64,000 nucleotides of DNA from Promethearchaeota archaeon (lineage in GTDB: Archaea; Asgardarchaeota; Lokiarchaeia; Sigyniarchaeales; SOKP01), in the NCBI GenBank assembly GCA_019894975.1, contig JAGXNO010000001.1, forward strand, positions 64,001-128,000, read 5' to 3'. Numbering within the stretch: position 1 is the first letter of the stretch; each line of letters opens with the position of its first letter. The translations under genes and the position numbers were made by a program. Shown here piece by piece: positions 16,159 to 20,502 of the stretch. The notes beneath the pieces were generated by a model. The model was not told the origin of the DNA and ran no database searches. It saw only the letters and a program-made list of their open reading frames with translations.

Positions 16159-16644
16159 TTATCTTTTTAGTTTAAAATAATGAGCAAATGTCTCATTTTC
16201 TTTTCCATAGGTTTCCATGATAAATTTTTTGAAAGCACCATAATCTAATCGCTCTTTCATAATATCAGCTCATCAATCAGCGTGTACAACGATAGTTATA
16301 TTACTATTGGGATAGAGATTAGTATTTATATCATCTTGCAAGTTCATAAATTCTCTATTTGGTCCATATGCATTAACTGCACAGTCCTCATAAATTTTAT
16401 TCTCCTCTCCATCCCAAATTAATTGCAAATAACTGTTTATCAACCCTTTATAGATAGGAAAAATTTTATTTTCTGGATTAGAATAAACTTGCTTATCTAT
16501 AACACTTAATGCGTCTATAATAGTTCCTTTGTCTTTTATAGTTATCGTGTATTCTAATCCTTTTGACAACCTTTTTTCAGGGTCAGGTGCAAAAATTGAA
16601 ACCCGTACAGTCTTTTGTTTTTGTTTTTCTACCATGATAATCAC
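16159..16644 (-). CDS. Candidate selenoprotein: beta-grasp (MoaD/ubiquitin-like) domain with tandem Sec-Sec (TGA TGA at 16275-16270) and a 36-aa C-terminal extension
   Basis: The ORF-track protein ends ...LYPNSNITIVVHAD at TGA TGA, but the frame continues ADIMKERLDYGAFKKFIMETYGKENETFAHYFKLKR-TAA(16161-16159). SECIS-like hairpin follows. Likely start ATG 16635 after GGGGTGA. Confidence 0.72.
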
Positions 16645-16678
16645 CCCAAATGAGCTAAAATAATAGATTTACTAAATT

Positions 16679-16960
16679 CTATATAAGACCTTTAGCTCTA
16701 AGGATTTTTGGTAATTCTTTCTTAAGGATAAACGATGAAGAAAACTTTTTCTCACCATCAACGACAACGCACTTACTACTAATGTTTAGATTTTTCGCTT
16801 CTTCTGAATTAAGATTCTTAGTGTCAAAATCGATATGTTTAATATAAGGAGTAAGTTCAACAAATACTCGATTCATAAACTTATCCCATTCACAAGCGCA
16901 TGCATCTAGAGGAACATAGATATCTATCTTTAATTTCCCATTTGACTTTTCATTACTCAT
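16679..16960 (-). CDS. Small thioredoxin-fold CxC protein, ArsD metallochaperone-like
   Basis: KIDIYVPLDACAC...CVVVDGE resembles the ArsD pattern (IxVFDPAMCC...LVDGE); lies in the acr3 operon. Confidence 0.55.
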   Translation of the reverse strand: MSNEKSNGKLKIDIYVPLDACACEWDKFMNRVFVELTPYIKHIDFDTKNLNSEEAKNLNISSKCVVVDGEKKFSSSFILKKELPKILRAKGLI

Positions 16961-16984
16961 CTCTAACGATTCCTCTATACTTGT

Positions 16985-17203
16985 TTAATTTGTTTTATTA
17001 ATAGGTTGATTCTGCTCGCAGTGAAGTTTAACGCCACAATGTATCCCTTTCTTCAAGCGTTTAGGATTTTCAGGATCACAGGGCTCCTCATGTGAACATT
17101 GTGATTCAGCATTAGCACTACAAGAATGACCTGAATAATCAGGTGATTCTCTCATTTCTTTCATAATTATTTCTATTGTTTTATCTATTTCTTCATCAGA
17201 CAT
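16985..17203 (-). CDS. Small Cys/His-rich protein, putative metal(loid) binder
   Basis: 72 aa with 5 Cys and 4 His; GAGGA upstream; co-oriented directly after acr3. Confidence 0.6.
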   Translation of the reverse strand: MSDEEIDKTIEIIMKEMRESPDYSGHSCSANAESQCSHEEPCDPENPKRLKKGIHCGVKLHCEQNQPINKTN

Positions 17204-17274: not shown

Positions 17275-18294
17275 TTATTGTGATTTCCAAAAACCTCGTT
17301 TACTAAGCAATCGTCCTAAATATACAACTGAAAGCATGACTGGAACTTCCCAAAATAATCCCATGGTTGTACCTAACGCTGCAATAGTATTATTCATAGC
17401 AATAGCAGTAGCTATAGCAATCTCAAAATGGCTAGAGGAACCGATTATTACTGTAATGATTGCCTCCCTGTATTTCATCTTAAATATTTTTGTCATTAGT
17501 ATATTATAGCCCACAACTATGACAAATCCTACTAGAAGTGGAATTGTAACTATTAATAAGTAATCCGGATGATCTAAGAGGGCCGTACCATTCATAGAAA
17601 AAAGGATTATTAATGTTGCTAGAAGCGCGATAATGGAAATCTTCCCAAGAAATGGGCGATAAGTGTCGGTGAACCATTCTTCTCCTTTAGAAGAAATCAG
17701 AACTTTCTTACTAGTTAACCCCACTATTAATGGAAGACCAATGAAGAAAAATAGCGAAATCAATAACAACACCCAATCAAGGGAAATATTTTGTATTCCT
17801 GTCAAAAATGTAACAATAGGAATATATAAAAAGATGATGGTAATCGTATTTAAGCTGGTATTAACTACATTTTGCTCTTGGTTTCCTTTCGCCATCCAAC
17901 CCCACACTAAAACCATTGCTGTGCAAGGAGAACTAGAAAGTAATATAATTGCAAGGATTAAGTCATCATTCCCTTGTAAAAATATTCGTGCCATAAGCAA
18001 TCCGATGAAGGGGGCCACAATCCAATTTGAAATAAGGGTTAGGATTATTGGTTTAGGATTTTTACCCAATTTTTTCAATTCAGATGCCTTAAGGTTTAAC
18101 ATTGCAGGATACATCATTAGAAACAAACAAATTCCAATTGGTACTGAAATTCCCCCAATCTTTAGAGCGTTAAGAGCGTCACTAATACCAGGTATGATTT
18201 GGGAAATGAGAACACCAATAAGTATACATAATAAGACCCAAAGCGGTAAAAACTTTTCAAAAAAGCTGATTGTTCTTCCTTCTTCTTCACTCAT
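17275..18294 (-). CDS. acr3: Arsenite efflux transporter, Acr3 family
   Basis: FFEKFLPLWV, MMYP, SPCTAMVLVW, SSHFEIAIA, EVPVML motifs. Confidence 0.95.
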   Translation of the reverse strand: MSEEEGRTISFFEKFLPLWVLLCILIGVLISQIIPGISDALNALKIGGISVPIGICLFLMMYPAMLNLKASELKKLGKNPKPIILTLISNWIVAPFIGLLMARIFLQGNDDLILAIILLSSSPCTAMVLVWGWMAKGNQEQNVVNTSLNTITIIFLYIPIVTFLTGIQNISLDWVLLLISLFFFIGLPLIVGLTSKKVLISSKGEEWFTDTYRPFLGKISIIALLATLIILFSMNGTALLDHPDYLLIVTIPLLVGFVIVVGYNILMTKIFKMKYREAIITVIIGSSSHFEIAIATAIAMNNTIAALGTTMGLFWEVPVMLSVVYLGRLLSKRGFWKSQ

Positions 18295-18454: not shown

Positions 18455-18841
18455 ATGGATCCTGATCATAAAAAAGAAATTTTGGATAAATTGATTAAAT
18501 GTGAAGATATAAATAATCCAGATCTTCATTTCAAACAATTGCGTGAATTAGGTAATCACTTAATTCAAAATCCTAGTTTTGATGACTTAATTAAATTTGT
18601 AAACGCTGTTGCAAATAGAAAACGCCTAATAATTATTAATACATTAAAAGAGAAGGATCGATGTGTCTGTGAATTAGAAGCTGTTTTAGACGAGTCCCAA
18701 CCGGCCATATCACATCATTTAAAAATACTTGAAAATGCTGGATTGATTAGAGGATGGAAAAAAGGTAAGTTTACACATTATGACATTGTTAAAGAACAAA
18801 TTATCTCATATATGGATATTTTAAATCAAAAATTAATATAA
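18455..18841 (+). CDS. arsR: ArsR family metalloregulator
   Basis: RCVCEL As(III)-binding box, SQPAISHHLKILENAGLI; divergent from acr3. Confidence 0.93.
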   Translation: MDPDHKKEILDKLIKCEDINNPDLHFKQLRELGNHLIQNPSFDDLIKFVNAVANRKRLIIINTLKEKDRCVCELEAVLDESQPAISHHLKILENAGLIRGWKKGKFTHYDIVKEQIISYMDILNQKLI

Positions 18842-18972
18842 ATAAGCCTTCCACTAAAATTAATAGTCTATAACTATTAAGTTTAAAAGCTAATCTAAGT
18901 ATTTTAATCGTAATCTAAAATTTAGATTTACTTGACATAATTTAATTTTAGTGAAGAAAATTTTTTGAAAAC

Positions 18973-19230
18973 GTGAAATTTATGGCAAAACCAGTACCAG
19001 ATACCGAAGAGTCAATGAATGAATGCAGAAAATTCTGTGGTCCTTGTCCTTCTTTCAAACCAAACCAACTCAATGAATTTGAACCTCATGCTCTATTCTG
19101 TTCAAGAGGAATATCACAAAAACCAAAAGACCAAATAGAAAACAAAGGATGCAGTTGTTTTGGATGTGGATTGTTCTCAAAGTATGAATTGGAAAAGGGA
19201 TTTTTCTGTGCACCTCATTTTCAACAATAA
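18973..19230 (+). CDS. DUF2769-like Cys-rich small protein
   Basis: C..FCGPCPSF...LFCSRG...GCSCFGC...FFC pattern. Confidence 0.75.
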   Translation: MKFMAKPVPDTEESMNECRKFCGPCPSFKPNQLNEFEPHALFCSRGISQKPKDQIENKGCSCFGCGLFSKYELEKGFFCAPHFQQ

Positions 19231-19332
19231 AAAATTACTACTTCATATAATCTCTTTTTTTTTAATTTTCCTATGAAATTTTTATTAAATATTACAGTGA
19301 ATATTTTAAATGTACAAGTATATCACAATATA

Positions 19333-19401
19333 ATGAGAATTAATTTTTCGAATAAGGTAAGAGTTCTTACCTCTTGTTGCTGTAGTACTTGTTGTTGTTA
19401 A
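19333..19401 (+). CDS. Poly-cysteine leader peptide MRINFSNKVRVLTSCCCSTCCC (22 aa, not in ORF track)
   Basis: ATG 19333 to TAA 19401; 6 of the last 8 codons are Cys; about 110 nt upstream of cysteine synthase; TTTTAAAT box at 19304-19311. Confidence 0.8.
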   Translation: MRINFSNKVRVLTSCCCSTCCC

Positions 19402-19500
19402 ACAACAGTTTCATTAATTCTCAAATAACCATCAGAAATCTTTCTTTTATAAAACTCTCGTTGGTTAAAATTGTAGAATTTTAATTGTGAAATCTAAAAT

Positions 19501-20502
19501 TTGGGTGATAGAATGAAGTCATTATCGTATAGTAGGGAAAAAGGAAAAATTGAATTTAATAATAAATTAAGAGTGTATGAAAGTATTGAAGATTTAATTT
19601 CAAATAGAGAAAATCCTTCACCATTGGTTAAACTAAATGAAAGAATTAATCCAAATAAGAATTTTCCGATTTATATGAAATTAGAGCGCTACAATCCTTT
19701 TGGATCAATAAAAGATAGAGTTGCTTATTCAATGCTTAAAGATGTAGTATTTAAGGAGGGGCAACGGATCATAGAACCGTCATCTGGGAATACTGGAATC
19801 GCTTTAGCATCATTAGCAAATGCGAGGGGTATTCCTATTGAAATAGCTGTACCGAGTAGAATTCCCGAAGAAAAAAAGATACTTTTAAAATTACTCGGTG
19901 TGAAAGAATTATGGGAAGCTGATGATAATCTATGTCCTAAGTTTCCTAATGAAGGGGCGAGAGGTGTTGTAAATGGAATATTGGAGAGTAAGGGTGGAGA
20001 ACGGTATTTTAATCCAGATCAATATGGAAATGACTTGAATGTAGAGGCTCATTATAGAACCACAGGTCCAGAAATTTGGGATCAAACTAATGGGGAAATT
20101 GATTATTTTTTTGCAGCTATGGGTACATGTGGCACTATTACAGGAGTTGGAAAATTCTTAAAAGAAAATAAACCCTCGGTTAAAATAATAGGAGTAGAAC
20201 CTTCAGAAACATTACATAATATACCAGGCTTGAAAAGAATAACTGACCTTGATGAAGATTTGATTCCAAAAATCTTAGATAAAACTGTAATTGATGAAAT
20301 TATTGAAGTAAACGATAAAGAAGCTTATAGAACCGGTATTGACTTAGCAAGAAAAAATGGCATATTAGTTGGGCCTTCTACCGGTGCAATTTTAGCCGCT
20401 GCTTTAAAGTATGCAAAATCACATGAAGGGATAGCAGTTATTATTGCCCCCGATGATGCTACTAAATATATTAGTTCATATGCGCCCTATATTAAAGAAT
20501 AG
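19501..20502 (+). CDS. cysK: PLP-dependent cysteine synthase family protein (CysK/CysM-like)
   Basis: NPFGSIKDR (PLP lysine), EPSSGNTG, TTGPEIW, MGTCGT, GPSTGA; probable start ATG 19513 after GGGTGA. Confidence 0.88.
   Translation: MGDRMKSLSYSREKGKIEFNNKLRVYESIEDLISNRENPSPLVKLNERINPNKNFPIYMKLERYNPFGSIKDRVAYSMLKDVVFKEGQRIIEPSSGNTGIALASLANARGIPIEIAVPSRIPEEKKILLKLLGVKELWEADDNLCPKFPNEGARGVVNGILESKGGERYFNPDQYGNDLNVEAHYRTTGPEIWDQTNGEIDYFFAAMGTCGTITGVGKFLKENKPSVKIIGVEPSETLHNIPGLKRITDLDEDLIPKILDKTVIDEIIEVNDKEAYRTGIDLARKNGILVGPSTGAILAAALKYAKSHEGIAVIIAPDDATKYISSYAPYIKE

Follow-up and report, generated by a model that had tools for sequence, protein, structure and literature searches.

A conserved poly-cysteine leader frame upstream of an accessory cysteine-synthase-like gene in Asgard archaea, a candidate ribosome-dependent attenuator

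We analyzed a stretch of 64,000 nucleotides (nt), hereafter called the window, from a Promethearchaeota archaeon of the Lokiarchaeia (assembly GCA_019894975.1, contig JAGXNO010000001.1, positions 64,001 to 128,000), focusing on a short open reading frame (sORF) with a terminal run of cysteine codons, located before a gene of the cysteine synthase family. The sORF lies in a spacer of 282 nt between a DUF2769 gene (18973–19230) and a gene for a pyridoxal phosphate (PLP) enzyme (ATG at 19513, stop at 20502). This second gene, here called cysK-like (19513–20502), is read from the plus strand, as are all leader features described below, and encodes a fold-type II PLP enzyme of 329 amino acids. The candidate leaderless sORF (19333–19401) consists of 22 codons and the stop codon TAA (19399–19401), and its predicted peptide is MRINFSNKVRVLTSCCCSTCCC. 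The cysteine codons are codons 15–17 (19375–19383) and codons 20–22 (19390–19398). A TATA-like box, TTTTAAAT (19304–19311), can be read in the sequence 29 nt 5' of the A of the sORF ATG, and no Shine-Dalgarno (SD) sequence was seen upstream of the sORF at this locus. The cysK-like ATG is preceded by the SD-like sequence GGGTGAT (19503–19509).

The transcript of the spacer is predicted to contain four helices. The 5' arm of helix P1, TGAGAATTAAT (19334–19344), overlaps the start codon and codons 2–4 of the sORF, and its partner is the 3' arm ATTAATTCTCA (19413–19423), which is part of a near-invariant block, TTCATTAATTCTCA (19410–19423). Hairpin P2 (19355–19372) lies inside the sORF, at codons 8–14, and pairs AGGTAAG (19355–19361) with CTTACCT (19366–19372). 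In hairpin P3 (19389–19408), the last cysteine codons (19389–19396) pair with a stretch at and beyond the stop codon (19401–19408, containing ACAACAG), which places the stop codon in or beside the loop. P4 (19426–19467) is formed by TAACCA (19426–19431) and TGGTTA (19462–19467) and encloses a pyrimidine- and T-rich loop with the oligo-T sequence TTTCTTTT (19441–19448). Further downstream, TAGAATTTTAAT (19474–19485) resembles the 5' arm of P1 and is a candidate alternative partner of the P1 3' arm. An earlier note on this DNA, made from the sequence alone, had proposed a cysteine-sensing attenuator on the basis of the sORF, the TATA-like box, the P1 complementarity, the internal hairpin and the pairing of the cysteine codons with the stretch just 3' of the stop; the sORF and the box are present as described and all three pairings are exact. 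The note had also placed a T-rich tract in front of the ribosome-binding site of cysK. The tract is there, but it is located approximately 55 nt upstream of that site rather than adjoining it. A 42-codon frame starting at ATG 19273 is also present in this genome, and was rejected as it is not kept in relatives.

Orthologs of the cysK-like gene were collected blind to the leader, by a protein search of 135 family genomes and a metagenome scan with the ortholog alignment. The sORF was found in every ortholog of at least 76% identity with readable upstream DNA, corresponding to 24 loci and 22 distinct leaders. In these loci, the frame runs from ATG to TAA over 20–26 codons, ends in 4–8 cysteines and stops 106–115 nt upstream of the cysK ATG. 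The encoded peptides, such as MRINNQTKLGFLTFRCCIFGCC, MRINYQNTVKFFTACCCCCR and MRINHQNKVIKLTFDCCFFSCCCRK, have a cysteine content of 27–35%; the number of cysteines (4–8) and their spacing vary, and other residues (R, RK or Y) may come after the run. Conservation of the cysteine run in relatives had been set beforehand as a test that could refute the attenuator proposal. The run is kept in all close orthologous loci, as are the sORF, the promoter offset, the helices and the spacing to cysK.

Poly-cysteine sORFs were also observed on more distant branches, in a different wording. A branch at 70% identity (loci L036, L150 and L151) carries the sORF MRFRQQNQPNSYFCNCCRDCCC, whose stop codon is 102 nt away from the downstream cysK ATG. 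The branches of L147 and L187 carry unrelated poly-cysteine sORFs, MKYGEDSRKDSCFLCSCSCMCCC and MATNKLSNSCTCCCTYCC, respectively, each with its own TATA box approximately 30 nt upstream. Most orthologs in the range of 60–73% identity have no such sORF and are often preceded by a TusA-like gene or by a second cysK. In the protein tree, the carriers form a single clade (24 of 25 rows, the exception being L121, which has no upstream DNA), and L147 and L187 are placed apart from it. The search of cysK upstream regions that the earlier note had suggested revealed poly-cysteine sORFs that are conserved in close orthologs and re-invented on distant branches. Locus L138 was excluded as a doubtful carrier, since its cysteine-rich frame lacks an ATG and the SD-led ATG found there belongs to a different frame. 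This locus has an insertion of approximately 300 nt (around 1150–1444) between a canonical cysK and the cysK-like gene; the cysteine-rich frame within it ends in CCYGCC, and its final codons pair with a complement after the stop (GGCUGU with ACAGCC).

The association with this particular gene is specific. None of 103 loci of other cysK homologs contained an ATG-started sORF ending in a cysteine run at a comparable distance; a loose cysteine filter flagged 10 of them, and none of the 10 qualified. A covariance model of the leader (effective sequence number 1.89), searched against the 135 family genomes, gave one match each in 9 genomes, always before a cysK-like gene, and one of these matches had been missed by the protein search because the contig ends there. 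The sORF was never found without a cysK-like gene in this search, and the leader is linked one-to-one to a single gene clade. Within the 3.9-Mb genome the leader is single-copy, and the sORF at 19333–19401 is the only intergenic ATG-started sORF with at least five cysteines in nine residues by the stop. A cysteine regulon was rejected on the grounds that the genome contains no second intergenic poly-cysteine sORF and that the covariance model gave one match per genome. A repeat or mobile element was likewise rejected; the leader is single-copy and the P1 arm motifs are about as frequent across the genome as expected.

Several features of the alignment suggest that the sORF is translated. The ATG, the frame and the stop codon are kept in all 22 distinct leaders, and all length differences within the sORF are multiples of three (0, 6, 9, 12 or 15 nt), as compared to gaps of mostly 1–2 nt in the next 110 nt. 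The frame-preserving indels include codons other than TGT. The first cysteine cluster (19375–19383) is located outside every predicted helix, yet it is conserved, and the third position of its middle codon is only C or T (14 and 7 of 21, respectively), never a letter that would give tryptophan or a stop. Over all sORFs, cysteine is encoded by 95 TGT and 17 TGC codons, with no third-position variation beyond these two. Outside the cysteine codons we observed no constraint at the amino-acid level: first and second positions are at least as variable as third positions, and the conserved non-cysteine residues (R2, I3, N4, V9 and T13) coincide with P1 and P2. The codon-position test as a classical coding signature was therefore discarded, third positions outside the cysteine codons being no more variable than the others. 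Taken together, the frame-kept indels, the conserved unpaired cysteine cluster and the lack of any other amino-acid constraint suggest that translation and the cysteine codons, rather than a peptide fold, are under selection. This pattern fits a leader peptide; it fits a pure chelator too.

The RNA architecture was examined by folding and by alignment. The 101-nt segment 19330–19430 folds to −24.2 kcal/mol in RNAfold as compared to a mean of −13.1 for shuffled sequences (z = −4.05), and none of 200 shuffles was as good; the full leader of 196 nt is not exceptionally stable (z = −1.06). RNAfold unites P1, P2 and P3 into a three-way junction. The four helices P1–P4 were predicted by RNAalifold from the 22 leaders, with P1 enclosing the sORF and P4 pairing AACCA with UGGUU around the pyrimidine-rich loop. 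Of the helix cells in this alignment, 92% are paired, as compared to 30–57% when partners are slid. The 5' arm of P1 is invariant in 21 of the 22 leaders, with 97% of its cells paired. Compensatory base changes, which the earlier note had proposed to look for, were found in the other helices: one G-C pair of P2 is replaced by A-U in four leaders, one U-A pair of P3 by C-G in two leaders with U-G intermediates, and in P4 a change of CC to UU retains wobble pairing in three leaders, with an extra C-G pair in L034. These changes are few, the covariation being thin because the leaders are close relatives. A stronger argument, in our reading of the alignments, is the re-invention of the P3 design, which is rebuilt from other letters in L036, L129–132, L147 and L187. 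In L129–132, the stop is shifted by two codons and GUUGUU is still paired with AACAAC; in L147, AUGUGUU pairs with AACACAU, and in L187, CUGCUGU pairs with AUAGCAG. In the last three cases the stop codon is located each time in or beside the P3-type loop. An Rfam scan of positions 18800–19700 returned sub-threshold noise only and no family match, and a scan of the window for tRNA and tmRNA genes found none.

The TATA-like box is located at the same offset in all aligned leaders. Across this genome, genes that lack an SD have their TATA-like hexamers most often at position −29 relative to the ATG, which equals the offset of the sORF box. The conserved offset together with the genome-wide peak makes a leaderless transcription start at the sORF ATG plausible. 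The sequence GGGTG, GGGAT or AGGAT is kept 4–8 nt upstream of the cysK ATG in the orthologs, and this SD matches the expectation for a downstream cistron. A separate cysK promoter was considered and rejected: TTTTATAAAA (19445–19454) is TATA-like here and not conserved in the orthologs, and cysK may yet have a second start. Two AATATT hexamers located 6 nt apart (AATATTACAGTGAATATT, 19288–19305) overlap the TATA-like box of the sORF; only the outer hexamers are palindromic, and the ArsR-type regulator encoded nearby could use the pair as its operator.

Public RNA runs were available as assembled contigs only, from which no start, strand or level can be read, in which DNA carry-over is possible and in which uncovered stretches are uninformative. 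One metatranscriptome contig spans the coding region of the cysK-like gene in a relative with 96% identity. Another contig of 151 nt, from a different RNA library, covers 19389–19498 and continues into the cysK start of a relative. A contig cannot prove a transcript, and we take this one as at most a weak hint that the sORF and cysK are co-transcribed.

The cysK-like protein matches Pfam PALP at 1.1e-61 and scores 267 bits against the NCBIfam cysKM model, under its cut-off of 344 bits. Its closest relatives of solved structure are cysteine synthases (CysM/OASS, approximately 1e-50). A second cysK paralog with 40% identity is encoded on another contig of the same genome, and the type of this second paralog is the commoner one among 41 genomes searched. 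By these comparisons, the cysK-like gene is an accessory paralog of the cysteine synthase family. A canonical CysRS was identified in the genome (344 bits), and SepRS gave no match above the cut-off; charging of Cys-tRNA would hence depend on, and be able to report, free cysteine. No equivalog of the serine acetyltransferase CysE (TIGR01172) scored above the cut-off in this genome, which is 95% complete and has two cysteine-synthase-like genes, and an O-phosphoserine route for cysteine synthesis is possible in the host. In L139–L145, which are GC-richer metagenome contigs, orthologs of 68–69% identity without the leader are located directly after a gene for a TusA/SirA-like sulfur carrier with a CPxx motif, which hints that this clade of enzymes may take sulfur from a protein persulfide.

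Runs of cognate codons in a leader peptide are the hallmark of ribosome-mediated attenuation to which the earlier note had appealed, and every leader displays 4–8 cysteines in 20–26 codons. That bacteria sense amino acids through ribosomes stalled on leader peptides is textbook knowledge, and the mechanism relies there on coupled transcription and translation. We consider, with moderate confidence, that the element is a ribosome-dependent, Cys-tRNA-sensing leader of an accessory cysteine-synthase-like gene. The attenuator interpretation of the earlier note is supported in part, by the conserved cysteine run, a target of the cysteine synthase family and the presence of CysRS without SepRS; its switch mechanism is not supported.

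In the mechanism that we propose, transcription would start at or next to the A of the sORF ATG, as set by the TATA box at −29. A ribosome would load on the 5'-terminal AUG and translate the 20–26 codons, of which the terminal 4–8 cysteines would be the sole conserved codon meaning. When Cys-tRNA is ample, the ribosome would pass the run and terminate at the stop codon in the P3 loop, upon which the leader would collapse into the compact three-way junction of P1, P2 and P3, with the sORF start buried and the invariant 3' arm occupied. When Cys-tRNA is scarce, the ribosome would stall on the cysteine codons, block P3 and hinder the closure of P1. The freed 3' arm may then pair with AGAAUU in the downstream look-alike, which would re-fold the approximately 110 nt that separate the sORF from the SD-led cysK and alter read-through into cysK, its translation or both. 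The controlled output step could be termination, translation or stability. We infer that the sORF and cysK would be co-transcribed, that the step under control would lie downstream of the sORF and that the response would be directed towards more cysK at low cysteine.

A scan for conserved complementarity beyond P1–P4 provided a candidate for the alternative helix. The 3' arm sequence AAUUCU pairs over 6 bp with AGAAUU (19476–19481), which is located within the look-alike of the P1 5' arm, and the pairing is kept in 94% of cells. The GAATT of the look-alike is kept in all leaders except L036. Footprint-constrained folding was applied to 20 of the 22 leaders, with the ribosome placed at the first cysteine, at the last cysteine run or at the stop. 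For the leader of the window itself, the AGAAUU pairing replaces P1 when the footprint is set on the last cysteine run. A T-run of at least five in the P4 loop was observed in 11 of the 22 leaders, as compared to 4.4 expected, and is absent in 7.

Several results weigh against a cysteine-sensing leader. The earlier note had suggested folding the RNA with and without a ribosome footprint; in the 20 leaders, the footprints caused no consistent change in the accessibility of the cysK SD or AUG, and thus no consistent unmasking of either. The cysteine tract is not complementary to the cysK SD, whether GGGTG, GGGAT or AGGAT, and SD sequestration of the mycobacterial type was rejected, as it was not seen in the constrained folding. 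We also rejected the 3' arm as an anti-start element, as it paired no better with the cysK start than with 400 SD-led start regions drawn at random from this genome (mean percentile 0.51). The T-run is not universally conserved, and neither a terminator/antiterminator pair nor an SD-sequestering helix could be demonstrated by constrained folding or by the test of start-region complementarity. The specific switch of the earlier note, in which stalling turns on cysK, is therefore not supported. Beyond the switch, P1 would cover the same AUG that has to be translated, most P1 columns are invariant and would fit any constraint at the sequence level, and there is no regulon, the leader occurring on only one gene per genome. 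Finally, given the sub-threshold cysKM score and the lack of a CysE match, the reaction is assigned to the enzyme at the family level.

Other explanations for the conserved element have to be weighed against this evidence. The sORF may encode a functional cysteine-rich micropeptide, which might buffer thiols, bind a metal(loid) or partner the CysK-like protein and be merely co-expressed with the enzyme, the helices tuning its own translation or the stability of the mRNA. The earlier note had raised a variant of this, a metallothionein-like arsenic chelator, in view of the neighbouring genes: an ACR3 arsenite carrier gene (17275–18294, minus strand) is located upstream in divergent orientation, and an ArsR gene (18455–18841, plus strand) and the DUF2769 gene have the same orientation as the cysK-like gene. 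ArsR and ACR3 are found within 1.5 kb in 7 of the approximately 25 carrier loci (the window and six others), and approximately 14 loci follow the cysteine-rich DUF2769 gene. These neighbours, the cysteine content of more than a quarter of the peptide and conservation restricted to cysteine would all suit such a peptide. However, the neighbours of other carriers are DsrE-like, MvhD-like or unrelated, and no ars gene is located within 1.5 kb in L129–132, L147, L187 and L036, among others. The sORF and the cysK-like gene thus behave as a co-travelling unit, which argues against a dedicated arsenic chelator, as does the variable number and spacing of the cysteines. The chelator variant is weakened accordingly. 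More generally, R, RK or Y may follow the run, the sORF never occurs without the cysK-like gene, the fixed spacing and the conserved helices are unnecessary for mere co-expression, and the RNA helices explain every conserved non-cysteine residue of a peptide that has no Pfam match. We regard a functional micropeptide as unlikely; the distribution of the unit would agree with loci of high thiol demand having recruited an accessory supply of cysteine.

Even less weight is given to a structured cis-regulatory RNA or small RNA that acts independently of translation, for example a protein- or ligand-binding leader in which the frame is a by-product of a TGT-rich helix arm. Such an RNA would account for a stable three-way junction in which the two ends are paired, for P1 arms that are invariant at the nucleotide level, synonymous positions included, and for the lack of a third-position signature outside the cysteine codons; TGT repeats that slip by three would also preserve a frame. 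However, the ATG, stop and frame are kept not only in the 22 leaders but also in the independent L147, L187 and L036, which differ in RNA sequence, the unpaired first cysteine cluster shows synonymous changes only, the frame-keeping indels extend to non-TGT codons and the Rfam scan gave no match. We consider this explanation improbable. Neutral similarity among close relatives, with a functionless cysteine run, appears highly improbable. Most carriers are 76–94% identical in the neighbouring protein and the effective sequence number of the RNA model is low, as would be expected from shared descent, but invariant blocks alternate with freely varying stretches within 190 nt, compensatory changes exist, other branches have unrelated poly-cysteine sORFs that likewise place the stop in a hairpin, and nothing comparable was found in the 103 control loci or in the rest of the genome.

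The closest known counterparts of the putative cysteine-sensing leader are bacterial. The leaderless poly-cysteine sORFs of mycobacteria, Ms5788A and five further loci, have been shown experimentally to be cysteine-responsive translational attenuators, in which the cysteine tract pairs with the downstream SD (Canestrari et al., 10.1101/834739). Like these, the Asgard element is a short first-cistron ORF, here predicted to be leaderless, closing with a run of cysteine codons and located approximately 100 nt from an SD-led gene of cysteine metabolism in a strongly structured leader with base-paired cysteine codons. Unlike these, it is archaeal, with a TATA-box promoter and without sequence homology; its cysteine tract has its pairing partner immediately 3' of the stop rather than in the downstream SD, the helix around the entire sORF takes in the start codon of the sORF itself, SD sequestration was not seen, and there is one locus per genome as compared to the multi-locus mycobacterial "ribulon". 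We do not assign the leader to the mycobacterial family, because the pairing between cysteine tract and SD that defines it was tested for and is not present. The resemblance is in logic, not in RNA architecture.

Cysteine leader peptides have also been predicted for actinobacterial cys and cbs operons without a recognisable terminator hairpin, and their proposed mechanism depends on Rho (Seliverstov et al. 2005, PMC1262725). The Asgard leader shares with these bacterial candidates the short ORF with cysteine codons near the stop, the position upstream of genes of the cysteine synthase/CBS type and the lack of a recognisable terminator hairpin, and differs from them in its conserved helices and archaeal host. 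Factor-dependent termination in archaea would involve different proteins from the bacterial Rho case. The classical trp, his and leu attenuators of bacteria resemble the element in the enrichment of cognate codons in a short leader ORF. A second resemblance is that helices excluding one another could form among three segments that are alike or complementary, here the 5' arm, the 3' arm and the look-alike. In contrast to these attenuators, no hairpin and U-tract terminator follows directly, the oligo-T being located in a loop at least 17 nt past P1, and the regulatory codons are placed at the very end of the ORF.

In a full-text literature search, we found no description of such a leader for any archaeon. 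We see about an even chance that the element represents the first recognised leader-peptide attenuator of archaea, that is, ribosome-mediated and amino-acid-sensing, situated in Asgard archaea and having arisen or been re-invented on at least two to three branches of one cysteine-synthase-like family, with a distinct architecture in which a leaderless sORF is enclosed by a helix including its own start codon and has its stop in the loop of a hairpin of the sensing codons. The locus offers a concrete case for asking whether archaeal ribosomes act as metabolite sensors, and its short, naturally occurring and putatively leaderless frame could be used to study how leaderless initiation competes with a helix. 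The leader may also serve as a regulatory marker of an accessory cysteine-synthase paralog, often in thiol/arsenic loci. With a length of approximately 190 nt it is self-contained, and could be transferred to an archaeal host amenable to experiments or used in vitro.

A few additional observations were made in the surroundings of the leader and elsewhere in the genome. The protein encoded directly upstream of the leader (18973–19230, DUF2769, 85 amino acids) is syntenic in approximately 14 carrier loci and missing elsewhere. Three small ORFs of 72, 93 and 123 amino acids follow ACR3 on the minus strand (16273–17203) and gave no match in Pfam or NCBIfam. The scan for cysteine runs also revealed at least 12 paralogous ORFs of approximately 370–390 amino acids with the motif I-C-x-C-C-x-C-C-C in the same genome, examples of which are G000:C87:224102-225337, C86:3490-4635, C93:45246-46319 and C175:17938-19074.

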